From Gaiellales bacterium (GTDB lineage: Bacteria > Actinomycetota > Thermoleophilia > Gaiellales > JAICJC01), in contig JBBQUW010000013.1 in NCBI GenBank assembly GCA_038212095.1, positions 1,232 through 65,231 of the forward strand: a stretch of 64,000 nucleotides of DNA, read 5' to 3'. Below are positions 16,626-45,633 of the stretch, piece after piece (position 1 is the first letter of the stretch; each line of letters begins with the position of its first letter). A program made the position numbers and the translations under genes. A model generated the notes under the pieces. The model did not search any database. It saw nothing but the letters and a program-made list of their open reading frames with translations, and had not been told where the DNA came from.

Positions 16626-17162
16626 ATGCACCTTCCCACCCTCTACAAGGCCCGCAACATCGGCAAGCAGAACCCGTGCGCGATCTGTCTCGATCGGACG
16701 CGGGGACGGACGCAGCGCGTGACCCTCGGCTACGGCGTCGAGGTGTGGCTGTGTCCTGGGCACGCCTCGGTGGAGTTCCTCACCCGCCGCAGCGGCAGGG
16801 ACCTGGTCGTGACGCTTTCAGGAGTGTGGCATGCGAACGGCTGCATGACGGCCGCCCGACATCGAGCCCTCGACGCTCACCTCGCCTCGCTCGTGGCTCG
16901 GCCGCCGCGTTCGCGCCCGGGATCGTACGCTTGGCCACGGGTGCGGCTCCGTTGCGAGCGGTGGTTCGCCTCCGGGGTGCCGCTGTCGCGGGTTGCCGCC
17001 CGAGTCCAGGATGCCGCATACGCTGACGCCGAGCCGCCCAGCCTGCGCACCATCCAGCGCTGGCGCTCCCAGCGCCGCTGGGTACCCCCGCCGGGCGCCG
17101 TTGTCACGACGGTGCCACCACCCGCTCCGCCCGGTTCACGTCCAGGTACCGCTCGCGCATGA
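16626..17162 (+). CDS. Hypothetical protein with Cys/His pair (CAIC...CPGH) and a C-terminal HTH-like segment
   Basis: ATG 16626 inside track ORF 16506..17162. Contains NPCAICLDR...WLCPGHAS and PSLRTIQRWRSQRRW. The 3' end overlaps the convergent CopCD gene by 59 nt. Confidence 0.45.
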   Translation: MHLPTLYKARNIGKQNPCAICLDRTRGRTQRVTLGYGVEVWLCPGHASVEFLTRRSGRDLVVTLSGVWHANGCMTAARHRALDAHLASLVARPPRSRPGSYAWPRVRLRCERWFASGVPLSRVAARVQDAAYADAEPPSLRTIQRWRSQRRWVPPPGAVVTTVPPPAPPGSRPGTARA

Positions 17163-19530
17163 AGTGCGCGGCCGTGACCATGTGCAGCGTGAGCACTAGG
17201 TGCGTGCGTCGGTCGATCGTCAGCCGAAAGAACGTTGGGCCCTGTGGCAGCACCAGCGTCACCGCGATCGTATCCGCCGTCTCGCCCGCAACGTAGGCCG
17301 CCACCGCGCCCGGCGCCCAGAAGGGATCGGGCACCTTCAGCGGGCTGGTCGCCTGCTCGACCCAGCTGCCGTTGCTCAGATCCCAGCGATGCTTCCCGAT
17401 GATCCGAGCCTGGGTGCCGCCGTGGACGTCGATCGAGAGCCGGTCGGGTGAGTTGGCAACGAACGTGGTGTGCACCGAGTGCACCGGGTCGGAGGCGAGG
17501 TCGTTCTCGATCCGCACCGACCGCAGGCTGCGCAACGACCTTGCCGTCTCGGCCACCAGTCGCGCCGCGCCGCTCGCATCCGAAGGCGGCACGTCGATGG
17601 TGACGGGCGCCGCCGCCGCTCCAGGCAGCAGCACCGTCAGCGACAGCCGCGGCGCGCCGACCGGCGCCAGGTAGCAGATCTGGGGGCCGGGGCAGGGAGT
17701 CGCGACTCGGCCGTTCACCACCAGCAGGGCGGCTCGCGGCGATGAGCCGTCCGAGTTCAGCAGCGTCAGGCGCACACCGCCCGGCACCCGTTGCGCGCCG
17801 ACCGCCAGCGCTCCCGCCTCGGCGGCGCCCACCGGCCCGCTCGCCGATGGTGGCTGCGGGACGCCGGGCGTGGCCAGCGCGGAGCCGATCGGCACCGCCG
17901 CCGCCCAGGTACGCGACCCGGCCGCGACCTGCGCCGTCAGGCGCCCTGCCGGCACGGCGGCCGCGACGCCCGCCCACTGGCCGCCGCCGAGGCTGCGCAG
18001 CGGCACCGTCGTCTGCGAGCCTCGCCCGTCTACCAGCAGCAGCGATGCGGCCTCCGCCGAGAGCGGCAGCCGCAGCCGAAACGCATTTCCACCCGCGTGG
18101 CCGGGCCACACGCTGAGCTCCGCCGCCGGTCCCAGCCGGAACGTCGCGCTGCCCCCGGCCGGAGCGGCGACGGCCGACGAGGCGGTCGACGGAGCGCTGC
18201 CGGGGGGCAGGTTGGTGAGCAGCGCCACCGCCGCCACCACCAGCGCCATCACCACCAGCTCGGCGATAGCGGAGCGGCGCAGCGCCCGGAACCGTTCGAG
18301 CAGCCCACGATTGCGATAGCCCAGCGCCACCAGCACCGCCAGCAGCAGCGTCTTTGCCACCAGCGTGCGGCCGTAGCCGGTCGTCCACAGCTGGCTCACC
18401 GAGCTGAGCTCCCACAGCGCCCGCAGTCCGCCCGTCAGCGACAGCACGAGCACCGACGCCAGCGCGATCCGCGAGAACCGCCGCGCCGCGGCCGCCCGCA
18501 CGCGCAACTGGTCGGCCTCGGCCAAACCGCGGGTGGCATGTGGCGTCACCCACACCAGCTGCAGCAGCCCACCGGCCCACACCGCGGCGGCCGCGATGTG
18601 CGCGGTGTCCAGCGCCACCACGAGCAGTCCGCGCCCGGGGTCGCCGGCGTGTCCCGAGATACCGGGCGCCGCCAGCGCCCAGACGCCGGCCGCCAGCGCG
18701 GGCGCCGCCAGCGCCAGCGTCAGCAGCCGTCCACGGCCGATCGATGCGTAGGCTAGCGCGACCAGGATCGTGAAGGCCGCCGTCACGTCGACACCGCGTC
18801 CGAACACGCGTCCGAAACGGGTCGCCTGCAACGCGGATGCGACCGGGCCGCGATGATCGAACGCAGCCCAGAAGCTGACGCCGGCGACCTCGGCCCCCTG
18901 CTGCGTCAGCGCCACCCAGCCTCCGCCCAGCACCAGCACCGCCGACAGCGCCAGCACCTGGTTCGCGCGATGGCGCTCGCGCAGGGACATCAGCCGGCCC
19001 GGCTCGCCTCCCTCCTGGACGATCAGCGGCCGGAAGACCGCCAGGCGGTAGACGACGCCGCCCACGAGCAGCAGCAGTCCGGCGAAGTACACGAAGCGGG
19101 CGGTCAGGTACGGCACGTCGAGCCGTGAGTCCTGCGAGCTGGCCTGCGGCGGTGGCCGTCCCGAGCCGATGCCGATCGCGTACAGACCGGAGATCAGGTG
19201 GCCGTCGGTGGACACGATCTGCCAGCGCACCGTGTAGTCGCCGTCGGGCAGGCCGGGCCGCAGCGGGATCACCAGCGAGTCGACGTTGCTGGGTGAGGTG
19301 TAGGCGGCGGCCGCCAGCACCGCGGAGCCGCTGGCATCGGTGACGGTGGTGCCGCCCGGGATCGGCCGCACCTGCTGGTCGAACGTCAGCAGCAGCTGCC
19401 GGGGCGCGGCGGCCACCCTGGTACCGGCGGTGGGAATGGTGGTCAGCAGGGTGGCGTGGGCGAGCGCCGACGCTGGCGCCAGCGCCGGCAGCAGAACGAC
19501 GACAACCAGGAGTGCGGCGACGCGTCTCAG
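17104..19530 (-). CDS. CopC-CopD fusion copper-handling protein (YcnJ-like) with a long C-terminal extension
   Basis: CopC module (HATLLTTIP..., YTVRWQIVSTDGHLISG), a multi-TM CopD module, then ~367 extra residues. The track ORF starts at GTG 19416, which removes the signal peptide and the N-terminal His. The extension to CTG 19530 is inferred. Confidence 0.8.
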   Translation of the reverse strand: MRRVAALLVVVVLLPALAPASALAHATLLTTIPTAGTRVAAAPRQLLLTFDQQVRPIPGGTTVTDASGSAVLAAAAYTSPSNVDSLVIPLRPGLPDGDYTVRWQIVSTDGHLISGLYAIGIGSGRPPPQASSQDSRLDVPYLTARFVYFAGLLLLVGGVVYRLAVFRPLIVQEGGEPGRLMSLRERHRANQVLALSAVLVLGGGWVALTQQGAEVAGVSFWAAFDHRGPVASALQATRFGRVFGRGVDVTAAFTILVALAYASIGRGRLLTLALAAPALAAGVWALAAPGISGHAGDPGRGLLVVALDTAHIAAAAVWAGGLLQLVWVTPHATRGLAEADQLRVRAAAARRFSRIALASVLVLSLTGGLRALWELSSVSQLWTTGYGRTLVAKTLLLAVLVALGYRNRGLLERFRALRRSAIAELVVMALVVAAVALLTNLPPGSAPSTASSAVAAPAGGSATFRLGPAAELSVWPGHAGGNAFRLRLPLSAEAASLLLVDGRGSQTTVPLRSLGGGQWAGVAAAVPAGRLTAQVAAGSRTWAAAVPIGSALATPGVPQPPSASGPVGAAEAGALAVGAQRVPGGVRLTLLNSDGSSPRAALLVVNGRVATPCPGPQICYLAPVGAPRLSLTVLLPGAAAAPVTIDVPPSDASGAARLVAETARSLRSLRSVRIENDLASDPVHSVHTTFVANSPDRLSIDVHGGTQARIIGKHRWDLSNGSWVEQATSPLKVPDPFWAPGAVAAYVAGETADTIAVTLVLPQGPTFFRLTIDRRTHLVLTLHMVTAAHFMRERYLDVNRAERVVAPS

Positions 19531-20066
19531 CGCCGACTCCGCACTGCCAGCGTGGCCGCCGCTGCCGCTGCCAACGCCGCCACCAGCGCCAGTCCTGCCA
19601 GCACTCGCGCGACGCTGTCGCTGGAGCTGCCGCCGGCGATCGGCGCGACGGTGATCAGCGGCGTCGTCCAGACCCTGGTCGAGCCGTCGGCAAAGGTCTG
19701 CATCGCCGTCAGGTGGATGTCACCGGCGGTCGCCGGCAGCGTGGCCGTGAACTGGAACAACGCCAATCCTCCGGGCGGCACCCGGCCGCCCTGCCAGGAC
19801 AGGGTGGCGACGCGATTGGTCTGGTCGCGCACCGTCTGGGTGATGAACCCGGGCGCATCCGCAGCGCCTTCGACCACCAGTGAGGCGGGGATCGTGAGGC
19901 GGAGTCCGGTCAGCGCCTGGCCGGCCGACTCGTTCGGTGATCTGAGGGTGAACAGCACGTCGCCGCCCGGCGATGCCGTGGCCGGTGTGAGCTCGACGTG
20001 TGCCTGCGCTGTCGCCGGTAGGGCGAGCAGCGCGGCGAGTGCGATCGACAGTGCGCGAACGCGCAT
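19527..20066 (-). CDS. ycnI: YcnI/DUF1775 copper-binding protein with C-terminal TM anchor
   Basis: Signal peptide MRVRALSIALAALLALPATAQA followed by HVELTP. AGGAGG lies upstream of ATG 20066. The C-terminal anchor is ARVLAGLALVAALAAAAAA. Confidence 0.8.
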   Translation of the reverse strand: MRVRALSIALAALLALPATAQAHVELTPATASPGGDVLFTLRSPNESAGQALTGLRLTIPASLVVEGAADAPGFITQTVRDQTNRVATLSWQGGRVPPGGLALFQFTATLPATAGDIHLTAMQTFADGSTRVWTTPLITVAPIAGGSSSDSVARVLAGLALVAALAAAAAATLAVRSRR

Positions 20067-20194
20067 TGCGGGAACCTCCTGACCTGGTACGAGATCGTGG
20101 TCAGGCCGGAGTCGGAGGTGCCCGGCCGCGCCAGGCGCCACCGCTCAGCGCCGCCCGGGGAGCGCTGCCGAGCATCGTCCGGCCAGGGCCGGGC

Positions 20195-29785: not shown

Positions 29786-29827
29786 CAGATGCGGTAGTCT
29801 CGGCCTCCCACGATCACGGGAGGAGCC

Positions 29828-30439
29828 ATGAGTTGGGTGCTAGAGGGCGAGTATCTGGAGAACTGCAGCTGTGATGTGCTTTGTCCCTGCATCACCTCAT
29901 CGCTGCAGGGAGCGGCCGACACGGAGCGCTGCGTCGTGCCTCTCGCGATGCGAATCGGGCACGGCTCCTCGGGAGACGTGACGTTGGACGGCTTCTGCGC
30001 GATCCTGGTCTGTGATACGCCGCAGGTGATGGGCGAGGGCAATTGGCGGGTCGCGGTCTACATCGATGAGCGCGCCGACGAGGCACAGCGCGCCGCCCTG
30101 GTGGGCATCCTGTCCGGTGCCCAGGGCGGGCCGCCGGTGATGCTGGCGGGACTGGTGGGGGAGATGCTGGGCGTCCACTTCGTACCCATCGAGTGGCAGT
30201 CAGACGGGTTGCATCGGCGAGTCGCCGTTCCCGGCATCATGGAGTTCTCGGTCGACGGCCTAACGGCGCCCAATTCCGACCAGGTGATCGAGATCACGAA
30301 TGTCTTCCACCCGATGGGCTCGAACCTGCCGGTCGCGGTCAGCCGCAGGGGCGTCTTCGATCATGGCGACAGCGGGATCGCGGCGTTCGATCACACCGGC
30401 AAGAACGGGCACTACCGTGACTTTTCCTGGGCGGCGTAG
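29828..30439 (+). CDS. DUF1326 family protein (copy 1)
   Basis: N-terminal YLENCSCDVLCPC motif and ~200 aa length. Confidence 0.75.
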   Translation: MSWVLEGEYLENCSCDVLCPCITSSLQGAADTERCVVPLAMRIGHGSSGDVTLDGFCAILVCDTPQVMGEGNWRVAVYIDERADEAQRAALVGILSGAQGGPPVMLAGLVGEMLGVHFVPIEWQSDGLHRRVAVPGIMEFSVDGLTAPNSDQVIEITNVFHPMGSNLPVAVSRRGVFDHGDSGIAAFDHTGKNGHYRDFSWAA

Positions 30440-31193
30440 CGCCGGAGCGGCGGTACCGGTCACCGCGCTGCTGGTGCTGGCGGGTGTGGCCTGGCTGGTG
30501 GTCGTCCGGCAGGCGTCGGGGATGCGCTCAGCCCCAGGCACGATGGGCTTCCACCTGGTCGGCTTCCTCGTGCTGTGGACGGTGATGATGGCGGCGATGA
30601 TGTTGCCCGCGGTGGCACCGGTGTACGCGATGTACGCCCGCGTGATCGAGCGGCAGGCCACGCCTGCGGTGCGGGCGCTGCGGCTGGGCGGGCTCGTCTC
30701 GGGCTACCTGCTGGCGTGGACGGCGTTCGGCTTGCTGGCCTTCGTGGCCGCCGACCTGGCCGGAAGGCTGGCCGATCGCGAGCCGCGGCTGGCGGTGTGG
30801 GTCGGCGCCGGACTGCTTGCCGCCGCCGGCCTCTACCAGCTCACGCCGGTCAAGGATCGCTGCCTCGCGCACGGCCGCTCGCCGCTCTCGCTGCTGATGC
30901 ATCTGGGCAGCTACCGGGGCCGGCTGCGCGACGTACGCGCCGGCATCTACCACGGCGGCTACTGCGTCGGCTGTTGCTGGGGGCTGATGGTGGCGCTGAT
31001 CGCGCTGGGCGTGATGGATCTGCGCTGGATGGCGCTGCTGGCCGGCGTGATCGTGCTGGAGAAGCTGTGGCGGCATGGCAAGGCGCTGTCCTATGCGGTC
31101 GGTGTGGCGCTTCTCGGCCTGGCGGCGCTGGCGCCATCCCATCCGGCCCTGATTCCCGGCTTACACGCCGCGCACACGATGACCAGCATGTAG
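30417..31193 (+). CDS. DUF2182 family predicted metal-binding integral membrane protein
   Basis: LWTVMMAAMMLPAVAP and HGGYCVGCCWGLMVAL. Start taken at GTG 30417 (overlaps the upstream gene); a later GTG ~30474 is possible. Confidence 0.7.
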   Translation: MTFPGRRSAGAAVPVTALLVLAGVAWLVVVRQASGMRSAPGTMGFHLVGFLVLWTVMMAAMMLPAVAPVYAMYARVIERQATPAVRALRLGGLVSGYLLAWTAFGLLAFVAADLAGRLADREPRLAVWVGAGLLAAAGLYQLTPVKDRCLAHGRSPLSLLMHLGSYRGRLRDVRAGIYHGGYCVGCCWGLMVALIALGVMDLRWMALLAGVIVLEKLWRHGKALSYAVGVALLGLAALAPSHPALIPGLHAAHTMTSM

Positions 31194-31893: not shown

Positions 31894-34525
31894 TCACCAC
31901 GTCTTGGCCGCACGCACCTCGCTGCGTGGCGACACGCGCGCCCGGCAGTCCACGATCACGCAGCCCTCGCCGCGCGCGATCACCGGGTTCATGTCCAGCT
32001 CGGCCAGCTCGGGCAGGTCCTCGGCCAGCGCCGAGAGCCGCAGCAGCAGGTCGGACAGCGCGTGCGCGTCGGCGGCCGGAGCGCCGCGGAACCCTGCCAC
32101 CAGCCGGCCCGCCTTGCCGCTGGTGACCATCTCGTCCGCGTCGACGTCGGTGATCGGCACGATCCGAAATGACGCCTCTCCGATCAGCTCGGCCAGCACG
32201 CCGCCCGGGCCAAACGCGACCAGCGGCCCGAACACCGGATCCTGCAGCAGGCCGGCCAGCAGCTCGACACCGCCGACGACCATCTGCTGGACGATGACCG
32301 GTGCCGCCATCGCGGTCGCGGCGGCGAGCACGGCCGGCTCGTCGGCCAGCCCCAGCGCCACGCCCTGCCGCTCGGTCTTGTGCGCGCCCGGCTCGGCCAG
32401 CTTGACCGCCACCGGGAAGCGCAGCTCGGCGGCACACAGAGCGGCCTCCTGCGGCGTGTCGGCCAGCCGCTGCGCGACCATCGGCAGGCCGTAGCAGCCG
32501 AGCAGGTCGCGGATCTGATCGGCGCCCAGCCACTCATCACCGGCGGCCAGCGCGTGGTCGACCAGCGCCCGGGCGTCGGCTGGCCGGATCCCGTCCGGCC
32601 GCAGCGCCATGCCGGAGGGACGCCGCAGCCACTCGCTCCGCTGCACCGCCCGGCCGAGCGCGCGGGCCGCTGACTCGGGGTAGGAGAAACCGCTCACGGG
32701 TGACCCCGGACGCGCGAAGGCGGCCGGCGGCCCGGACGCGGTCATGGTCACCGCCAGCACCGGCTTGGTCGATCCGGCTGCCGCGTCGGCGACGGCGGCG
32801 GCAACGGCGTCGGCACCGGCCGGTGCAGCGGGCGCGAACAGCACGATGATCGAGTCCAGCTCCGGGTCGGCCAGCAGCGCCGGCAGCACGGCCGCGTATG
32901 CCGCCGGCGTCGCCGACCCGAGCATGTCGATCGGGTTGGCCAGGCTGGCCTCGGCCGGAAGCAGCGGGCGCAGCAGCTCGACGGTGGCCGGCGAGGGCGT
33001 TGGCAGCGTCAGGCCGGCGGCATCGCACGCGTCGGCGCACAGGATGCCCAGGCCGCCGGCGTTCGTCACCACGCCCACCCGGTTGCCGGCCGGCAGTGGC
33101 TGCGCCGCCAGCAGCGTCGCGACGTCCATCACCTCATCGAGCGTGCCCATCCGCAGCACGCCGGCCTCGCGGAACAGCGCCTCGACCGCCGCGTCCGATC
33201 CGGCCAGCGCGGCCGTGTGCGACCCCGCCGCCCGCGCTCCGGCGCTGCTGACACCGCTCTTCAACGCCAGCACCGGCTTCTTGCGTGCCACCCTGCGAGC
33301 GACGCGGGCGAACTTGCGCGGGTTGCCGAACGACTCCACGTAGATCAGCAGCAGCCGCGTCGCCTCGTCGTCCTCCCAGTACTCGAGCAGGTCGTTGCTC
33401 GAGATGTCGGCCTTGTTGCCGATCGAGACGAAGCCGGACAGACCGATGCCGCGCGACGCCGCCTGCTCGAGCAGCGCCAGGCCGAGCGCGCCGCTCTGGG
33501 ACGAGAAGCCGATCGATCCGGCCGGGAACCCGCGCGGGGCGAAGGTGGCGTTGACGCCCGCCGCCGGCACGGCGATGCCGAGACAATTGGGGCCGAGCAG
33601 CCGGGCGCCGTACTGGCGCACCAGCTCCAGCAGCTGTCGCTGCAGCTCCACCCCGTCGGTGCCCATCTCGGCGAAGCCGGCGGAGATCACGCACACGGCT
33701 CGTGTCCCCGCTCGCAGCGCCTGCTCGGTAACCTCGAGCACGTGCGCCGATGGCACACAGACGACCGCCAGATCGATCAGCCGCCCCACGTCGTCCAGCG
33801 AGCGGTACGCGGGTACGCCGGCCACCGGCTCGCCGCGCAGGTTGATCGGGTACACCGCGCCGGGGAAGTCGGCCGCCAGCATGTTGCGCACGAGCGAGTT
33901 GCCGATCGTGCCGGCGCGCGCGGATGCGCCGAACACGGCCACCGTTCCGGGATGGAAGAAGGGTTTGAGCGACCTCACGGTGGCGGCGTGGTCGCGCTGG
34001 TCGACGCGTGCCACGTAGGCCGCGGTGGGCGCAATCGGGAAGCGCATCTCCGCGGTGCCGCGGTCGGCGTGCCGGGTGACCTCGAAACCGGCGTTGCGGA
34101 ACACCGACATCATCACCTCGTTGGAGAGGTCGACAACGCCCACGAACTGTTCGACGCCGGCCGCACCCGCCGTCTCTGCCAGCTGTTCCAGCAGGCGGGT
34201 CGCGACGCCGTTTCCCTGCATCGGGTCGGCCACGGCAAAGGCCACCTCGGCCGTGCGCGGATCGCGCAGGCGGTCGAACGTCCCCACCGCCACCACGCGG
34301 TGCTCGCGGATGCCGATCAGCGCCACCCGTTCGACCTGCGGCCTCGATGTAGCGATCGACCATCTCCCATCCCACCAGCCGGCTGTCGCCGAACCGCAAC
34401 CGGAGGCTCTCCGCCGACAGCTCCGAGAAGAAGTCGCGCGCGGACTCGCGGTCGGAGGCCAGCGAGCGTCGCAGCCGCAGCGTGCTGCCGTCCCGGAGGA
34501 TCACGTCGCGGACGGTGGGATCCAT
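31894..34525 (-). CDS. GNAT + NDP-forming acyl-CoA synthetase-like protein (actinobacterial Pat-type protein acetyltransferase); frameshifted as sequenced
   Basis: Track ORF 31894..34326 has CoA-binding (VAVFGASARAGTIGN), ligase and ATP-grasp parts plus only the second half of a GNAT (QGNGVATRLLEQL). The first GNAT half (MDPTVRDVILRDGSTLRLRR...SAESLRLRFG) is in another frame, from ATG 34525. Confidence 0.8.
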
Positions 34526-34585
34526 ACCCCGACCATAGACCTTTCCGCCAACCGTGCGGCCCGCTCGCACTACGCTTGCGAGACC

Positions 34586-35452: not shown

Positions 35453-36875
35453 GTGCCAGAAACGTGGGCCAATCTTGGTGTGGAGCTCCGGCTCGACCGC
35501 GATGGCGGGCGGCTGCGGGCGGAGATCGAGCGGGCGCTGCGAGAGGCTGTGCAGCGCGGATTTCTGCACCCCGGCGCGCGGCTGCCATCGTCTCGGCAGC
35601 TGGCGGCCGATCTCGGTGTGGCAAGAAACACCGTCGCGGAGGCGTACGCGCAGCTGGTGGCAGAGGGCTGGCTGTCCGCCCGCCAAGGTTCCGGCACGCG
35701 CGTCGCCGAGCGCGCCGCCGTCGCAGCGGCGCCGGCCATCGGCGAGCGGCCTGAGGTACGCGCCCGCTTCGACCTGCGGCCGGGGTCGCCCGACCTGGCG
35801 ATGTTCCCACGGGCGTCGTGGCTCGCCGCGACTCGGCGGGCGCTGGCGGGGGGCGCCCTACCACGCGCTTGGTAACGGCGACCCGCGGGGACGGTTGGAG
35901 CTGCGCGCCGCGCTGTCCGACTACCTGTCCCGCGTCCGCGGCGTCAGCGTCACGCCGGATCGGATCGTGGTCTGTAGCGGATTTACGCAGGCGCTGGGAC
36001 TGGTGTTGTCGGCGCAGCGCGAACGCGGCGTGCACCGCGTTGCCATGGAGGGCTACGGGCTGCCGCTGCACCGGGACGTGGCAATCGCGCAGCGGATGCG
36101 AGTGCAGACGCTGGCGGTCGATGGGGATGGGGCGATCGTCGACCGGCTGTCCGGCGCCGGCACGGTGCTGCTGACTCCGGCTCACCAGTTCCCGCTCGGC
36201 GTGGCACTCGCCCCCGATCGTCGTCGCCGCGTGGTGGAGTGGGCGGCCGACCACGGCGGGCTGGTCATCGAGGACGATTACGACGGCGAGTTTCGCTACG
36301 ACCGGCAGTCCGTGGGAGCGCTGCAGGCGCTGGCGCCTGATCGGATCGTCTACGCCGGTACCGCCAGCAAAGCGCTCGCGCCGGGCTTACGGCTGGCATG
36401 GCTGGCGGTGCCGCCCCCGCTGGCGGGGGGAGTCGTGGAGGCCAAACGGATCGCGGATGGCCACAGTGGCACGTTCGATCAGCTGACGCTGGCCGAGTTG
36501 CTGCGCACGGGGTCATACGAGCGGCACGTCCGCCGCTGCCGGTTGGCGTACCAGCGGCGTAGGAACAGCGTGGTGGAGACCGTGCGGCGACGCGTCCCGG
36601 ACGCCCGCATCACCGGCATTGCGGCCGGCCTGCACGCGCTGGTGGAGCTGCCACCCGGGCGCGGCGAGGCCGAGACGGTCGCGCGGGCGGCGGCGCTCGG
36701 GCTGGCGGTCGAGGGACTTGCGAGCTACCGAACCGGCGACCAGAAGCACAGACCGGCATTGGTGATCGGCTACGCGACGCCGCCCGAGCACGCCTTCGCG
36801 GCCAGCCTCGACAGGCTGTGCGCGGTGATCGGTGAGAGTACCCGCCGGCGCCCAGCGGGTAGTCTGGGCCGATGA
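35453..36875 (+). CDS. MocR/PdxR-type regulator (GntR HTH + aminotransferase-like domain); frameshifted as sequenced
   Basis: The HTH (LPSSRQLAADLGVARNTVAEAYAQL) is in frame 35453..35875. The PLP fold (GDPRGRLELRAALSDYL, GTASKALAPGLRLAW) is in frame 35400..36875. The frames switch at a G6 run. Confidence 0.8.
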
Positions 36876-38560: not shown

Positions 38561-40504
38561 CTATACGGCCTGGGCCGAGCTGCGGATCTCGACCAGCGCC
38601 GGCCCACCCGTCACCGCCATCGCCTCGCGCAGCGCCTGCTCGAGCTGGCCTCGGGTGTCGACGCGGAAACCGCGTCCGCCGCAGCTCTCGGCATATGCCG
38701 CGAAGTCGGGGTTGACCAGGTCGGTCTGCCACACCGGCCGGATCGCCGAGACGTGTTCGCGGCTGATCTTGCCCAGCTCGGAGTTGTTCAGCAGCACGTG
38801 CGTGATCGACATGCCGTACTTGACCGCGGTCGTGAATTCGGCCAGGTACTGGCCGAAGCCACCGTCTCCAGTGACGGCGATCACCTTGCGCGTCCCGCCG
38901 GTCGCCGCCCACGCTCCCATCGCGGCCGGGAAGCCAAACCCGATCGAGCCCAGGTAGCCCGACATCAGCACGTCCTGCCCAGGCTTGCACTCGAAGTAGT
39001 GACCGAATGCGTACGCGTTGTTGCCGACGTCCACCGCGATCACCGCGTCCGCTGGGGCGGCCTCACTCAGCGCTTCGAACACGGCTGCTGGGTGCATCCG
39101 GCCGGCGCCGTCGAGCAGCGCGGCGCGGCGGATCTTATCCTGCTGCCAGCGCTCAGTGCGACGGGCGATCACCGCCCGCTGTTTGGGCCGCTCGACCTGG
39201 GGCAGCCGCTGGCAGAGCACGGCCAGCGTCCGTCCGATGTCTCCCCACAGCGGCACGTCCACGGGGTGGAACTTGCCCAGCGCCATCCGGTCGAGATCGA
39301 CCTGGATGGTGGGCACGTACGTCGCGATACCGGTGTGGTTCGAGAATGAGGCGCCCAGCACCAACAGGCAGTCGCTTCGGGCCATCACGGCCGAGCCGAC
39401 GGGCGTTCCCGATCTGCCGAGTACACCACAGGCGAGCGGGTGGCCATCGGGAATCAGACCCTTGGCCTTGAAGGTGGTTATCACCGGCGCGTCGATTCGC
39501 TCGGCCAGCTCCACCACCGCCTCGCGGAACGGCCGGGCGCCGTTACCGACGATGATGGCCGGCCTCTCGGCCGCTTCGAGCATGCTGAGAGCGCGTTCCA
39601 GTTCGGCCTGCGGCGGGGCGATCTGGGGCTCGGCGACTCGTCCCAGGCGGGGCCGCTCGGGCGGGTCGTCGAGGCCGTCCAGCTCCTGCACCTCGTCGGG
39701 AAAGATCAGATGGGCGACGTCTCGGTTGACGACGGCGTGCTTGACCGCCAGCGCGGCGAGCTCGGTGGCATTCTTGGGTGACAACACTGTCTGGCTCCAC
39801 TCGCTGACGGCGTCGAAGGCGGCTGCGAGCGGCAGCTCCTGGAACGCTCCCGGGCCGACCACCTGCGTCTGCACCTGGCCGGTCAGCGCGAGGATCGGGG
39901 CGCGGTCGACCTTCGCGTCCCAGAGCCCGGTGAGCAGGTTGGTGGCACCCGGACCGGCGATCGAGAAGCAGGCCGCCGGCCGGCCGGTCAGCTTGGCGTA
40001 GCCGGATGCGGCGAACGCGGCGGCGCCCTCGTGGCGGATGCCGATGAACCGCAGCCTGCCCGCCTCCTCGGCCTTTCTCAACGCATCGGCCAGTCCCAGA
40101 TTGGAGTGACCGACCATGCCGAACACCGTGTCGATGCCCCACTCGGTCAGCACGTCCACCATCTGATCCATCAGCGTGACCCGCTCCCGCGGCACCGGCA
40201 GCTGCACGTAGAGGCCGTCGCCGCGCAGCTCGATCGGGTAGCCGGTGGCCGCGTCCGAGAAACCCTCGGGCGGCTTGCCCGTGCAGGGGTTGTACTCGTA
40301 GCCGTGCCAGGGGCAGATCACGTAGCCGTTCTCGATCTGACCGTCGCCCAGTGGTCCGCCCTGGTGCGGGCAGCGGTTGTCGAGCGCCCCATAGCCGTCG
40401 CTGGTGCGCGTGATGCAGATCGCGCGGCCGGCCGCCACAACCGTCGTCAAGCGGTCGACCTCGAGCTCGCCTGGCTCGACCTTGAACCACGCCGTCTCAA
40501 ACAT
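38561..40504 (-). CDS. Rieske [2Fe-2S] domain fused to a TPP-dependent enzyme (pyruvate oxidase/acetolactate synthase family)
   Basis: Rieske motifs CPHQGGPL and CPWHGYEY in the first ~110 aa. This is followed by the TPP fold (GMVGHSNLGLADAL, GPGATNLLTGL, GSIGFGFPAAMGA, VTGDGGFGQY). The ATG 40504 codon starts 8 nt upstream of the last base of the preceding gene's stop codon (40497). Confidence 0.8.
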   Translation of the reverse strand: MFETAWFKVEPGELEVDRLTTVVAAGRAICITRTSDGYGALDNRCPHQGGPLGDGQIENGYVICPWHGYEYNPCTGKPPEGFSDAATGYPIELRGDGLYVQLPVPRERVTLMDQMVDVLTEWGIDTVFGMVGHSNLGLADALRKAEEAGRLRFIGIRHEGAAAFAASGYAKLTGRPAACFSIAGPGATNLLTGLWDAKVDRAPILALTGQVQTQVVGPGAFQELPLAAAFDAVSEWSQTVLSPKNATELAALAVKHAVVNRDVAHLIFPDEVQELDGLDDPPERPRLGRVAEPQIAPPQAELERALSMLEAAERPAIIVGNGARPFREAVVELAERIDAPVITTFKAKGLIPDGHPLACGVLGRSGTPVGSAVMARSDCLLVLGASFSNHTGIATYVPTIQVDLDRMALGKFHPVDVPLWGDIGRTLAVLCQRLPQVERPKQRAVIARRTERWQQDKIRRAALLDGAGRMHPAAVFEALSEAAPADAVIAVDVGNNAYAFGHYFECKPGQDVLMSGYLGSIGFGFPAAMGAWAATGGTRKVIAVTGDGGFGQYLAEFTTAVKYGMSITHVLLNNSELGKISREHVSAIRPVWQTDLVNPDFAAYAESCGGRGFRVDTRGQLEQALREAMAVTGGPALVEIRSSAQAV

Positions 40505-41207
40505 GGCGCTGGATCCGGCCCCGCGCCTCACGCAAAAAGCTGAGCGCCGCTGCCATCGGATCGGCGCCGGCGATCAGCTGGGAGTGCAGCAGGGACGCGC
40601 CCTTGAACGTGGCATCGCCGAAGAACTCGTCGATCCTCCCGGCCCACGGCGACACGTACAGGTACGGCTCGGGATGGTGGCCGTCCCCGGGCGAGGCGCC
40701 GTATGTCCCGCGGTGGTTGGAGTCGTTGTCGCCCATGTCGATGGCGGCGTCGAAATGTTCGGGCCAGATCCGCACGATCGACGCCTCGTCGCGCGGGCCG
40801 GCCTCGGCTCGTAGCGTGTCGAGCGCCGCGGTGGCGAATGCGTACCATTGGCCCAGCGCGCTGGCCGCGTCGGCGTCGACCGCCAGCGGCGCATCCAGGT
40901 CGCCGTGCGGCGGCACGTCGAACTGCTCCTGCTGGGCGACGTCCGGCGTGATTCCAGCAGCGGCGGCGGCCGCGTTCAGCGTTGTGATGGGGCTCCTCGC
41001 CCCATCGACCACGAGGTGATCGCCTTCGACGCCTACCACGTGGCCGTCGAAGGCGAACGTCGAGAAGCCGCGCGGGGTGGCGCGCAGGATGACCTCGCCG
41101 TTCGCCAGCCGCTGGGCCGGTGCGATCACGTACACCGCAAGCCGGTGGAGCGCTTCGGTCGTCTCCAGGTACGCGGCTGGCAGCGGCGCCAGTGAGGTCG
41201 TGTTCAT
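40497..41207 (-). CDS. Hypothetical protein (coupled between the two Rieske fusions)
   Basis: ATG 41207 in an ATGA overlap with the upstream stop. 236 aa, with VRIWPEHFDAAIDMG and EPYLYVSPW. No family recognised. Confidence 0.55.
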   Translation of the reverse strand: MNTTSLAPLPAAYLETTEALHRLAVYVIAPAQRLANGEVILRATPRGFSTFAFDGHVVGVEGDHLVVDGARSPITTLNAAAAAAGITPDVAQQEQFDVPPHGDLDAPLAVDADAASALGQWYAFATAALDTLRAEAGPRDEASIVRIWPEHFDAAIDMGDNDSNHRGTYGASPGDGHHPEPYLYVSPWAGRIDEFFGDATFKGASLLHSQLIAGADPMAAALSFLREARGRIQRHV

Positions 41208-42848
41208 ACCACCCACTCCAGGTCGGTTCTTCGGGCCAGCTCGGGATCGAGCGTGGCCAGGTCGGTGCGGCACATGTCCGCCATCCGCTCGCGGCCGCAG
41301 ACACGGGCGAAGTCCACCATCATCGCGGTCGCCCGCGTGAAGAACTCGGTCAGCCTGCGGGCGGACTCGTCAACATCCAGCCGTCCGCGGAGCATCGGGT
41401 TCTGCGTGGCGATGCCCACCGGGCATCCACCCGAGTGGCAGGCGCGGTACTGCTGGCACCCGATCGCCATCAGGCTGGCAGTGGCCAGCGCCACGGCGTC
41501 AGCCCCAGCGCGAGCGCCTTGGCCATCTCGTCAGGCCCGCGGAAGCCGCCGGTCGCGACCAGCTGCACATCGGTCACGCCCTCATCCTCCAGAACCGGCG
41601 GGCGCGGTAGAGGCCAAACGCGGACGGGATGCCGACGTTGTCCTTGACGTGGACGGGGGCGGCGCCGGTACCACCGCCCAGGCCGTCGATGGTGATGTAG
41701 TCCGCGCCGCATTCGAGGGCGGCGGCCACGTCGCGCTCGACATCGCCGGCGGCGAACTTGATCCCGACCGGCACCCCGCCCGTCATCTCCTTGATCTCCG
41801 AGATGCGCCGAGCCAGGTCAGCCTTCGAGTGGATGTCGGGGAAGTGCGCGGGTGAGTGAACGTCGGTTCCGGCGGGCACTCCCCGCACGGCCGCGATCTC
41901 GGCGGTCACCTTCGAGCCCAGCAGCGTCCCGCCCAGCCCGGGCTTCGCACCCTGACCGATCTTGACCTCGATCGCGTTCGCCTTGGCGATGTTCTCCGCC
42001 GTCCAGCCGAAGTAGCCTGAGGCCATCTCGAAGATGTAGCGCTCGGCGTTGTCGCGTTCGCGCGGGTGGGCCCCGCCCTCACCGCTGGCGATCGCCGTGC
42101 CCGCCGCGGTGGCGCCGCGAGCGAGCGCCTCCTTCGCCTCCGGGCTGAGTGCTCCGTACGACATGTGGCTGACGAACAGCGGGATCGCAAGCGCGAGCGG
42201 TTTGGTGGCACGCGTGCCCAGAACCACCGACGTATCGACCGCGACATCGCCGAGCAGGGGCAGTCGATCGAGCTGCGCGGGTCGGAACACGAGTTCGTCG
42301 TAGGAGGGGTAGGGGCGCGCGTGCATCCCGGGCTCGTTTCGCTCCGAGCCCATCGCCTCGACGAACGGTCCGCCGCCTTCGGCAAGGTGATGCACCAGGT
42401 ACATGCCGCGGTCGTTGGCACCCCGGCGCGTCCACTCTCCCAGGTACACCCGCGGGCGGGCCGGCGCCGCCGCCACCCGCTCGGCATCGATCTCAACGGC
42501 GCCCTCGCGTACCCGCACGGGGTAGGTGGGCAGCGAGTCGCTCGGATTAAAGGGCGAGATCCCGGTTTGGAGGTCAAAGTCCCACGCGTGCAGGGGGCAG
42601 ATCGCCTTGCCATCCTCGACGTGGCCGTCACCGATCTGACCGCCGCGGTGAGGGCACAGGTTGCCGAGTGCGAACACCTCGTCGCCGTCCCGCATGATCG
42701 CGATCTCGGTGCCGTTGATCACCCGCACCACCCCCCGACCCGGCTCGATCTCATCCAGCCGGCAGGCGTGAGTCCAGCCGCTGCACGCGTTTCGCTCACC
42801 CATCGGAACCCGCTGCCGCCCGCCCCGTTGCCGCTCAACGTACGCCAT
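41204..42848 (-). CDS. Rieske [2Fe-2S] domain fused to an FMN-binding glutamate-synthase-like (GltB central domain) protein; two frameshifts as sequenced
   Basis: Rieske motifs CPHRGGQI and CPLHAWDF. GltS-like core (SHMSYGALS, KIGQGAKPGLGG, ITIDGLGGGTGAAP). The continuation VTDVQLVATGGFRGPDEMAKALALG and the end LMAIGCQQYRACHSGGCPVGIATQ are in two other frames (track ORFs 41470..41712 and 41204..41494). Confidence 0.8.
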
Positions 42849-42953
42849 ATCTCGCACTCCCGAGTCGAAGATCGCCGAGATACTGTCACCCTCGCGCGCG
42901 CCGCGTTACAGACCGAGCGTAACGAATCCCGGGTCGCGGCGACTGCCGTCACC

Positions 42954-44228: not shown

Positions 44229-44867
44229 GTGGTGCCCACAACGTACGCGGGGGATATGGAGTTGGTGCGGGCCCTGCGGGCGGGCGAGGAGGCGGCCTTC
44301 TCGCAGCTCGTCGACACGTTCGGGCGCTCGATGCTGCGCGTCGCATCGCTCTACGTTCGCGATCGCGCGGTGGCGGAGGAGGTCGTCCAGGAGGTCTGGA
44401 TCGGGGTGATGAGAGGGATCGACCGGTTCGAGGGTCGTGCGTCGCTTCGCACCTGGCTCTTCAGCATCCTGGTCAACACCGCAAAGACGCGTGGCGCACG
44501 CGAGGCGCGATCGGTACCTTTCGCGGCGCTCGGCGATGACGCCGTGCAGCCGGCGGTTCCTGAGGATCGCTTCCTGGCGGATGGAACGGCGTGGCCGGGA
44601 CATTGGACGAACGGCCCTGCGCAGTGGGGTGCGCCGCTCGATCGACTGTTGTCGAGGGAGACGCGCGACGTGATCGCAGGTGCCATCGACCGGCTGCCCG
44701 AGATGCAGCGGCGGGTCGTCTCTCTGCGCGATGTGGAGGGCTGGTCGTCGGGGGAGGTCTGCAACGTCTTGGAGATCTCGGAGACCAATCAGCGGGTGCT
44801 GCTGCACCGGGCGCGGTCACGGCTGCGCGAGGCGATCGAGCGAAGCGCGATCGAGGGGAACGACTGA
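44229..44867 (+). CDS. ECF (group IV) sigma-70 factor
   Basis: Region 2 (AEEVVQEVWIGVMRGIDRFEG, LRTWLFSILVN) and region 4 (LPEMQRRVVSLRDVEGWS..EVCNVLEISETNQRVLLHRARSRLR). An alternative ATG lies at 44256. Confidence 0.85.
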   Translation: MVPTTYAGDMELVRALRAGEEAAFSQLVDTFGRSMLRVASLYVRDRAVAEEVVQEVWIGVMRGIDRFEGRASLRTWLFSILVNTAKTRGAREARSVPFAALGDDAVQPAVPEDRFLADGTAWPGHWTNGPAQWGAPLDRLLSRETRDVIAGAIDRLPEMQRRVVSLRDVEGWSSGEVCNVLEISETNQRVLLHRARSRLREAIERSAIEGND

Positions 44868-44872
44868 GCACG

Positions 44873-45115
44873 ATGTCCGAGCGAGAGATCACCTGTCAGG
44901 AGCTGGTCGAACTCGTCACCGAGTATCTCGACGACAGCCTGCCTCCCGACCGGCGCCTGCTGTTTGAGGAACACCTGGCGTTCTGCTCGGCGTGCGGCAC
45001 CTACCTGGAGCAGATGCGGCTGACGATCCGGCTGACCGGCACGCTCCGTGAGGACGATCTCGACCCGATCGCGCGCGACTCGATGCTCGCCGTGTTGAGG
45101 GGGTTCGCGCGATGA
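44873..45115 (+). CDS. Zinc-finger (ZAS, HxxxCxxC) anti-sigma factor, short soluble form
   Basis: ATG 44873 lies 5 nt after the sigma stop. Contains EEHLAFCSACGTYL. Confidence 0.75.
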   Translation: MSEREITCQELVELVTEYLDDSLPPDRRLLFEEHLAFCSACGTYLEQMRLTIRLTGTLREDDLDPIARDSMLAVLRGFAR

Positions 45116-45633
45116 CGATCGCGTACAAGTTTCTGCGCCCCGGCCGGATGGCGCCATTCACCGGGGCACGCTGGCCGCCGGCCGGCGAGTGGCTCGATGG
45201 CGGGGGATCGCCCGCCCTGTGCCGGTGTGGCATCCACGCGTTGGAAGCGGTCGCGCTGCCCAAGTGGATGACCGAGGAGTTGTGGCGAGTCGAACTGGAC
45301 GACAGCACCCACCCTGGCGGCGGCATCGTGCTCGCCCGCCGTGGGCGCCTGGTCGAGCGCGTCGCTGGATGGAGCGACGAGACCGCCCACGCGTACGCCG
45401 AGGACTGCCTGCACCATCTCCCCAGGGGCGGCTGCGAGGTCGTGCGGACGCGGGCAGCGGATACGGTCGCCGTCGCCGCCACCGTGATCGCCGGTACCGC
45501 GGCCGCCGAGGTTGGATATTGCGCTGCGAAGGCCGCTGAGGCGGACGCCCCCGGCGGCTATGAGCGCGAGCGCATCCGCCAGGCCATCTGGCTGGCGAGC
45601 CGGCTGGAACTGGAGCGATCCACTCCCGGTTGA
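45112..45633 (+). CDS. Hypothetical protein coupled to the anti-sigma gene
   Basis: ATGA overlap at 45112-45115. Product begins MTIAYKFLRPGRMAPFTGARWPPAGEWL..CRCGIHA..ELWRVELD. Confidence 0.55.
   Translation: MTIAYKFLRPGRMAPFTGARWPPAGEWLDGGGSPALCRCGIHALEAVALPKWMTEELWRVELDDSTHPGGGIVLARRGRLVERVAGWSDETAHAYAEDCLHHLPRGGCEVVRTRAADTVAVAATVIAGTAAAEVGYCAAKAAEADAPGGYERERIRQAIWLASRLELERSTPG

Follow-up and report, generated by a model that had tools for sequence, protein, structure and literature searches.

A conserved gene module pairing Rieske-fused glutamate-synthase-like and PoxB-like enzymes, with one copy in a Gaiellales genome

Why should two different redox enzymes encoded in one gene cluster each carry a Rieske [2Fe-2S] domain of its own? 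The question is raised by a stretch of 64,000 nucleotides (nt) from a Gaiellales bacterium, called the window here. Three consecutive coding regions on its minus strand, between 38561 and 42857, encode an enzyme related to glutamate synthase (GltS), a middle protein of 236 amino acids (aa) and an enzyme of the thiamine pyrophosphate (TPP) dependent kind, and both enzymes begin with a Rieske domain. We find that this region is one copy of a conserved, uncharacterised two-enzyme redox module, which occurs in many bacterial phyla. The component families are already known and the fusions are held in databases under generic names. What is new is that Rieske-fused variants of known enzyme kinds form a conserved module. 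No description of a Rieske-fused PoxB-like enzyme, of a Rieske-fused GltS-like enzyme or of their pairing was found in the literature searched, which agrees with the original prediction, whose author knew of no described pathway with such a layout. In this genome the GltS-like gene is either inactivated or mis-sequenced, and the genes of the TPP enzyme and of the middle protein are intact.

Two enzymes behind Rieske domains

Start and stop codons overlap at both junctions of the three genes. In an ATGA at 41207-41204 the GltS-like gene ends (TGA) and the 236-aa gene begins (ATG), and the ATG of the TPP gene at 40504 lies 8 nt ahead of the end of the middle gene's stop codon (40497). Both overlaps, as well as every motif on which the original prediction was built (CPHRGG...CPLH, CPHQGG...CPWH, KIGQGAKPGLGG, DGLGGGTG, CPVGIATQ and GDGGF), were located where they had been described; the coordinates of all features are collected in Table 1. 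Close homologues of the window's proteins carry Gaiellales labels. The GC content of the window is about 70%, and a scan of 38.3-43.1 kb for promoters and terminators gave no sites, such a scan being uninformative in an actinobacterium of 70% GC.

Judged from its sequence, the third gene encodes a TPP enzyme of the PoxB/pyruvate oxidase type with an N-terminal Rieske-ferredoxin domain that has all four cluster ligands. Pfam, PDB and Foldseek agree on the proposed fusion of a Rieske module to a pyruvate-oxidase-like TPP enzyme. The Pfam Rieske model matches at 5.2e-13 (49.2 bits against a cut-off of 20.3), and TPP_enzyme_N, M and C match at about 1e-34 each. TPP_enzyme_N begins at residue 119 of the 656-aa open reading frame (ORF), and the linker between the Rieske domain and the TPP Pyr domain is at most 10 residues long. 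The ligands C45, H47, C64 and H67 are invariant among 12 aligned homologues. In the AlphaFold2 (AF2) model of the whole fusion (mean predicted local distance difference test score, pLDDT, 78.6; predicted template modelling score, pTM, 0.80), residues 4-103 form an all-beta domain with a pLDDT of 71-93 per 10-residue block.

The best PDB match of this enzyme is Escherichia coli PoxB (8e-69). The top Foldseek ranks of its model are pyruvate oxidase of Lactobacillus plantarum (LpPOX), E. coli PoxB and pyruvate:quinone oxidoreductase (PQO, EC 1.2.5.1) of Corynebacterium glutamicum, and the best structural match is 3EYA, the tail-less activated form of PoxB (TM 0.87). The three-domain TPP fold is common to all of these proteins, and the RHE motif with the catalytic Glu, the FQE motif and the GDGG motif for TPP/Mg of PoxB all align in the fusion (GDGGF). 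There are clear differences as well. The N-terminal Rieske [2Fe-2S] domain is an addition relative to PoxB, PQO and LpPOX, the identity to them in structural alignments is just 25-28%, and the NCBIfam equivalog cut-offs are missed widely (best match pyruvate oxidase PRK08611, 397 bits against 742; PRK09124, 301 against 792). Furthermore, the alignment covers residues 10-525 of the 572 of PoxB and the query stops 7 residues later. Thus the lipid-activated, membrane-binding C-terminal peptide of PoxB (about 47 residues, about 530-572) has no counterpart in the fusion.

The first gene is predicted to encode the FMN (flavin mononucleotide)/[3Fe-4S] 'synthase' domain of glutamate synthase behind a Rieske domain. 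Pfam matches to Rieske_2 (1.2e-16), Rieske (1.7e-15; 57.1 bits against a cut-off of 20.3) and Glu_synthase (6.9e-68) bear out the proposed fusion to a GltB-like FMN protein. The Rieske ligands C50, H52, C69 and H72 are invariant in 20 sequences. So is a C-x5-C-x4-C motif, CQQYRACHSGGC, in 20 family members; it aligns to C1102, C1108 and C1113 of Azospirillum brasilense GltS (chain 2vdc/1ea0), the [3Fe-4S] ligands of that enzyme. The QGAKPG motif and the Arg following it are kept; in GltS the lysine of this motif and the arginine bind the 2-oxoacid. The FMN 'synthase' domain is shared with GltB, with ferredoxin-dependent GltS and with the stand-alone 'FMN-binding glutamate synthase family proteins'. 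However, only positions 865-1180 of the 1490-position glutamate synthase model are matched (185 bits against a cut-off of 1047). The Ntn (N-terminal nucleophile) amidotransferase domain and the C-terminal GXGXG beta-helix domain of GltB are missing, no Pfam domain for either of them or for the central domain of GltB being found in the protein or in the neighbouring genes, and the active-site loop GEGGQ of GltB reads GLGGT. Both enzymes of the cluster are thus predicted to have complete ligand sets for a chain of flavin, [3Fe-4S] in the GltS-like enzyme, and Rieske [2Fe-2S].

The Rieske motifs themselves appear real in both fusions: both match profile hidden Markov models (HMMs), both keep four invariant ligands, and for the TPP fusion the model adds a predicted all-beta N-terminal domain. 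Their assignment to the NirD type stands in part. The NirD-like Pfam model Rieske_2 is passed by the GltS-like protein only (61 against a cut-off of 27), but the NirD models proper stay below cut-off (TIGR02378, 57 against 74.65; PRK09511, 35.5 against 135) and ferredoxins of ring-hydroxylating oxygenase systems match better. To these ferredoxins the Rieske domain of the GltS-like protein is closest in PDB and NCBIfam, with all family-specific Rieske cut-offs missed (for example AndAb, 68 against 150). The size of about 100 aa and the C-x-H...x16...C-x-x-H spacing are the same as in the ferredoxins of carbazole (CarAc) and naphthalene/biphenyl dioxygenases, in T4moC and in NirD. Those proteins are free carriers or a subunit of nitrite reductase, whereas here the domain is fused N-terminally to a flavoenzyme. 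No NirB-like gene is present among the neighbours in the window. The Rieske domains of the two fusions are about 30% identical to each other.

The middle protein, described as unrecognised in the original prediction, appears to be a distant member of DUF5996 (PF19459). It has no Pfam (E <= 0.01) or NCBIfam match of its own. Homologues adjoining Rieske-TPP genes in other phyla match DUF5996 at 7.5e-56 and 1.5e-12, and profile-profile alignment (hhalign) of the middle-protein family with these DUF5996-positive homologues gives a probability of 99.1% (E 1.8e-18, 227 columns); membership therefore follows by transitive homology. The alignment is full-length and the motifs WP(E/H)HFD and PGD...PY.Y are common to both, while DUF5996 members have about 280-300 aa against 236 aa for the window protein, which stays below the Pfam threshold. 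The AF2 model is of high confidence (pLDDT 91.7, pTM 0.89), and Foldseek matched it to no solved structure (best E 0.58). No mention of DUF5996 was found in the literature searched. The protein has 1,940 relatives in a word-indexed search, the named ones being called 'hypothetical protein' and mostly from Gaiellales, and 1,474 cluster representatives among 1.84 billion proteins. Many actinobacterial homologues (P0368, P0369, P0377 and P0397) carry about 90 additional residues at the N-terminus, 'RVLEPSPPAV...ADDP'. We considered a hidden Rieske domain in this extension and rejected it, as it has no Pfam match and no C-x-H motif.

Distribution and linkage of the genes

The Rieske-TPP fusion is widespread. 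In a scan of one genome per species it was found in at least 594 species genomes, a lower bound. The best 80 of these relatives are 55-74% identical over the full length and include Actinomycetota, Chloroflexota, Gemmatimonadota, Nitrospirales, Planctomycetota (Engelhardtia mirabilis Pla133), Cyanobacteria, Myxococcota, Acidobacteriota, Bacteroidota/Ignavibacteria, Poribacteria, and Alpha- and Gammaproteobacteria. Among the homologues of the TPP fusion (at least 120 clusters), the 120 best clusters all have the same architecture at an identity of at least 71%. Full-length copies are also present on plasmids of haloarchaea (Haloferax larsenii, plasmid pHl5678-1, and three others) and on plasmid 1 of Mycobacteroides abscessus subsp. 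bolletii 50594. The occurrence in Archaea and on a mycobacterial plasmid implies horizontal spread. The copies in H. larsenii (locus L093), in M. abscessus (L092) and in a metagenome-assembled genome (MAG) of a Heimdallarchaeota member (L028) are full-length and 52-61% identical, with no GltS-like partner nearby.

For the gene neighbourhood, all ORFs of 84 loci were extracted and clustered, and HMMs were built for both partner families. Linkage was counted in the 56 non-redundant loci that extend at least 3 kb to either side. A full-length Rieske-GltS-like gene lies within 6 kb of the Rieske-TPP gene in 23 of these 56 loci, and a DUF5996-like gene is nearby in 20; both partners are there in 13 and at least one in 30. 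Where present, the GltS-like gene almost always shares the orientation of the TPP gene and lies directly upstream of it. The DUF5996-like gene has that orientation in every case, its place being either between the two enzymes or just downstream. A gene of this family is a frequent third partner. Intact trios exist in L004 (Gaiellales-like) and L089 (Acidimicrobiia), and L005 has the pair without the middle gene. Absence of co-occurrence had been set beforehand as the refuting test. Instead, the two fusions lie side by side and in the same orientation in Actinomycetota, Nitrospirales, Planctomycetota, Acidobacteriota, Myxococcota, Bacteroidota, Gammaproteobacteria and others. This makes the functional link a real one.

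The linkage is not strict. In 33 of the 56 loci and on the plasmids no GltS-like gene adjoins the TPP fusion, the GltS-like fusion is alone in L090 and L091, and L001 and L002 have the middle gene but neither Rieske gene. A 645-aa neighbour of the middle-gene homologue in L001 was considered as a diverged TPP enzyme and discarded, having no similarity. These independent occurrences could speak for mere neighbours: unrelated redox enzymes with similar Rieske domains and an unrelated DUF5996 gene between them. Moreover, L002 has neither Rieske gene, and its middle gene still sits between the genes of a zf-HC2 anti-sigma factor and a 1-Cys peroxiredoxin, which are the two that border the complete trio of L004. 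Nevertheless we consider a lack of any shared function highly improbable. Adjacency in 23 of the 56 loci, from at least eight phyla and in otherwise unconserved surroundings, is far above the roughly 0.3% that we estimate as chance for a single-copy gene within 6 kb in a genome of several Mb. Order and orientation are conserved as well, and a Rieske-less version of the same pair exists.

This Rieske-less version was found in Streptomyces viridifaciens plasmid pKVP1 (BOQ63_003475/003480; L094 4455-7785) and in Streptomyces sp. NBC_00667 (OHA81_RS34185/34180; L095 3423-6823). In both, a GltS-like gene annotated 'FMN-binding glutamate synthase family protein' is followed by a PoxB-like gene annotated 'thiamine pyrophosphate-dependent enzyme'. 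The two enzyme families, their order and their orientation are as in the window, the genes being 20-84 nt apart, and no Rieske domain was found in either protein. The Streptomyces GltS-like protein keeps QGAKPG and C-x5-C-x4-C and has a hydrophobic N-terminus, a membrane anchor, in the place of the Rieske domain. The TPP enzyme is PoxB-sized, just about 32% identical to that of the window, and its C-terminus reads as a PoxB-like tail. With an anchor on one partner and a PoxB-type tail on the other, both Streptomyces proteins appear to contact the membrane.

In a Pfam census of 146 flanking genes no other family was present in more than three loci, besides two co-occurring membrane-protein genes. 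The first encodes a fusion of a haem-b membrane domain (Ferric_reduct) with a C-terminal Rieske domain and was counted in 7 of the 84 loci, 6 of them among the 56 with full flanks. It is followed by a gene for a membrane protein of 250-280 aa without Pfam match (268 aa), in 7-8 of the 84 loci and in several phyla. Within each of the two loci compared, the first protein and the TPP enzyme share 38-44% identity in their Rieske domains. Threonine-dehydratase-like genes were seen in just 6 of the 84 loci.

Frame breaks in the GltS-like gene

The original prediction treated the first gene of the trio as one gene. This holds only after correction, because the gene is not a single ORF. It is spread over three frames (42848/42857..41574, about 41590..41505 and 41494..41204), and the Glu_synthase match is split accordingly between a 427-aa ORF (profile 52-264) and a 96-aa ORF in another frame (profile 302-364), the piece between them sitting in the third frame. 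Aligned at the DNA level with the intact L004 and L005 orthologues, the gene shows two single-base gaps near 41591 and 41505, 86 nt apart, because of which CPVGIATQ and KIGQGAKPGLGG lie in different frames. After the first gap the original frame stops at a TGA (41576-41574), and at the second GCGCTCGGGG has become GCGCTGGGG. With one base added per site, an uninterrupted ORF runs on from the ATG at 42848. This repaired ORF shares 91% identity with its best homologue, and none of the residues that are invariant across 20 aligned sequences of several phyla is lost. The neighbouring TPP gene is 94% identical to its relatives. All 120 homologues listed for the GltS-like protein are uninterrupted, mostly 527-567 aa long; a few shorter ones come from short contigs or are labelled partial. 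Intact homologues of 509-567 aa have the same architecture. Programmed frameshifting was rejected, since a +1 shift would have to occur twice within 86 nt and the ORF is plain and intact in all relatives.

The breaks could be sequencing or assembly errors, in which case the organism would have an intact working trio like its relatives. The repaired ORF is complete, with no further defects besides the two gaps and with all invariant residues in place. Two more frame-broken genes lie within 7 kb. One encodes a GNAT domain with an ADP-forming acyl-CoA synthetase (ACS), Pat-like, with a frame change near 34.34 kb. The other, near 35.85 kb, encodes a MocR-like regulator. Such a density of frame breaks is unusual in a free-living bacterium and suggests a data-quality problem. 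DUF5996-like genes split into two ORFs were also found in other MAGs (L045, L037 and L006), so that frame breaks in such neighbourhoods are not unique to the window. On the other hand, a contig of the Logan assembly of run SRR19962015 (SRR19962015_56045) is 100% identical to window positions 40190-42585 (2,396 nt) with both gaps included. As this assembly is independent, the gaps are not the product of one assembler. In addition, a check of six other pairs of overlapping ORFs in the window showed normal, separate genes, and the second site as well as the GNAT-ACS break lie outside long homopolymers. We lean towards real pseudogenisation and hold an artefact to be the less probable, though a serious, alternative. 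As long as the gaps are not sequence errors, the trio cannot work here as proposed. The finding is accordingly weaker for this window, and it is worth pursuing in organisms with intact copies.

Table 1. Positions of the features discussed; window coordinates unless a locus is named
Feature	Position	Strand	Remarks
Rieske + GltS-like FMN/[3Fe-4S] gene	41204..42848	minus	548 codons once repaired; alternative GTG start 42857; two 1-nt deletions
Rieske [2Fe-2S] domain of GltS-like protein	42489..42776	minus	CPHRGG...x16...CPLH; Pfam residues 28-123 of the ORF starting at 42857
Frameshift site 1, one base missing	41590..41592	minus	TTCCTG in L004, TTCTG here; DNA alignment with L004 and L005
Frameshift site 2, one base missing	41504..41506	minus	GCGCT-GGGGC here, GCGCTCGGGGC in L004
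C-x5-C-x4-C motif, putative [3Fe-4S] ligands	41423..41458	minus	alignment to GltS
DUF5996-like middle gene	40497..41207	minus	236 aa; start overlaps upstream stop in ATGA
Rieske + PoxB/pyruvate-oxidase-like TPP gene	38561..40504	minus	647 aa, intact; start overlaps end of middle gene, 8 nt
Rieske [2Fe-2S] domain of TPP enzyme	40190..40504	minus	CPHQGG...x16...CPWH; Pfam residues 21-86 of the 656-aa ORF
GNAT + ADP-forming acyl-CoA synthetase gene	31894-34560	minus	frame change near 34340 (region 34300-34420): '...DRYIEAAG' in one frame, 'RVALIGIREH...' in the next; 7 kb from the trio
MocR-type regulator gene	35453-36875	plus	GntR helix-turn-helix domain (35453-35875) and aminotransferase domain in different frames; break near 35850 inside a G6 run; third broken gene within 11 kb
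ECF sigma factor, zf-HC2 anti-sigma factor and 173-aa protein genes	44229-45633	plus	173-aa protein without Pfam match
CopC-CopD fusion and DUF1775 (YcnI-like) genes	17107-20144	minus	copper-handling cluster
DUF1326 and PpoB2 copper-chaperone genes	29798-31190	plus	same copper-handling cluster
Ferric_reduct-Rieske genes	L067 9328-11157; L043 8913-10836		also in L042, L051, L056, L081 and L082
Split DUF5996-like genes	L045 5070-5931; L037 2831-3663; L006 7098-8019		two ORFs each

Possible routes of the electrons

What the two enzymes may do together can be put forward tentatively. We favour, at a probability of roughly 40%, two dehydrogenases acting on consecutive steps, each with its own Rieske electron outlet. 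At its FMN the GltS-like enzyme would oxidise an amino acid, or else a 2-amino or 2-hydroxy acid related to it, to the 2-oxoacid, and the TPP enzyme would convert this 2-oxoacid to the acid and CO2 at TPP and a predicted flavin adenine dinucleotide (FAD), pyruvate or 2-oxoglutarate being the likeliest substrates. Electrons would pass one at a time from the flavin to the enzyme's own fused Rieske cluster, in the GltS-like enzyme via the 3Fe-4S cluster. The Rieske domain would then be the outlet to a shared acceptor and would replace the membrane or quinone contact of the Rieske-less relatives. Where the operon also encodes the membrane cytochrome-b (Ferric_reduct) + Rieske protein, as in some phyla, this protein is probably the acceptor. 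The DUF5996-like protein might be an accessory or assembly factor.

Three observations favour two such dehydrogenases. The parts occur independently, and in the window itself the GltS-like gene is broken but the genes of the TPP enzyme and the DUF5996-like protein are kept. In several phyla the cluster also includes the gene of the membrane cytochrome-b + Rieske protein. Finally, the Rieske-less Streptomyces pair looks membrane-linked on both sides.

Several points weigh against this proposal. GltS works physiologically in the reductive direction and its 3Fe-4S cluster is the electron entry point, so that for the first enzyme the opposite electron flow would be equally natural. Our linkage counts score adjacency, and a partner encoded elsewhere in a seemingly solitary genome would escape them. 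Among the 84 clustered loci with their 146 flanking genes there is no conserved transporter, regulator or catabolic neighbour that points to a substrate. The Ferric_reduct-Rieske gene, the candidate acceptor, is absent from the majority of loci. Furthermore, the Streptomyces pair was found in only two related plasmids, and the transmembrane-anchored GltS-like genes of Rhodococcus, Ruegeria and Sphingobium are solitary.

The reverse flow would make the two enzymes a donor and an acceptor. The TPP enzyme would oxidise pyruvate or another 2-oxoacid, and electrons would run from Rieske to Rieske and via 3Fe-4S to the FMN of the GltS-like enzyme, which we regard as rather unlikely. We give the same low credence to the further step, in which a 2-oxoacid and ammonia would give a 2-iminoacid for the FMN to reduce, the whole being an amino-acid (glutamate) synthase independent of NAD(P)H and ferredoxin. 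In many phyla the genes are packed closely together, with junctions that overlap or leave very little sequence in between. The path from 3Fe-4S to FMN is the physiological entry route in GltS, and the three Cys ligands are kept. The fused Rieske domains resemble diffusible Rieske ferredoxins, which carry electrons from flavoprotein reductases to acceptors, and the irreversible oxidation of the PoxB type would make the TPP enzyme the natural donor.

Yet a glutaminase domain or another ammonia-delivering partner is absent from the protein and from the neighbouring genes. In this genome, the supposed acceptor is broken and the donor conserved. The Rieske-less Streptomyces pair looks membrane or quinone linked, and quinol is a poor reductant for reductive amination. 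Such a couple predicts strict co-occurrence. Each fusion is often found without the other nearby, so that the coupling of 2-oxoacid oxidation to a reductive amination, suggested as an example in the original prediction, was not borne out and is ranked below the two consecutive dehydrogenases.

Less probable still, in our judgement, is the most far-reaching form of the coupling. Here the Rieske domains would be plug-in connectors that wire a PoxB-like 2-oxoacid oxidase directly to a GltS-like FMN/[3Fe-4S] enzyme, so that oxidation of pyruvate or another 2-oxoacid would drive a reductive amination to glutamate or another amino acid, with no need of NAD(P)H, of free ferredoxin or of glutamine, with the DUF5996-like protein as an accessory subunit of new fold. 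If true, such a connector system would be a previously unrecognised form of electron transfer in many bacterial phyla and haloarchaea.

Whichever way the electrons run, the cluster bears on two textbook enzymes. Enzymes of the PoxB type and of the glutamate-synthase type each have a large, conserved Rieske-carrying branch, 55-74% identical across phyla. Their recurrent pairing suggests an unrecognised redox route of amino acids and 2-oxoacids in soil, marine and symbiont bacteria. The cluster is also a clean test case for the exchange of electron-transfer domains for membrane anchors. Cultured hosts for such tests are E. mirabilis Pla133, H. larsenii and M. abscessus subsp. bolletii (plasmid). 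The E. mirabilis genes lie at about 630.6-634.3 kb of NZ_CP036287, and the H. larsenii plasmid gene is KU306_RS17095.

Some further genes surround the trio. In L004 the trio comes directly after a block of sigma and anti-sigma factor genes on its own strand and is followed by a 1-Cys peroxiredoxin gene. The corresponding block of the window has the opposite orientation to the trio, and no peroxiredoxin gene comes next. This neighbourhood may point to a stress-linked regulation. At a greater distance, the window contains a copper-handling cluster, which comprises a CopC-CopD fusion and a DUF1775 (YcnI-like) gene on the minus strand as well as a DUF1326 gene and a PpoB2 copper-chaperone gene on the plus strand.

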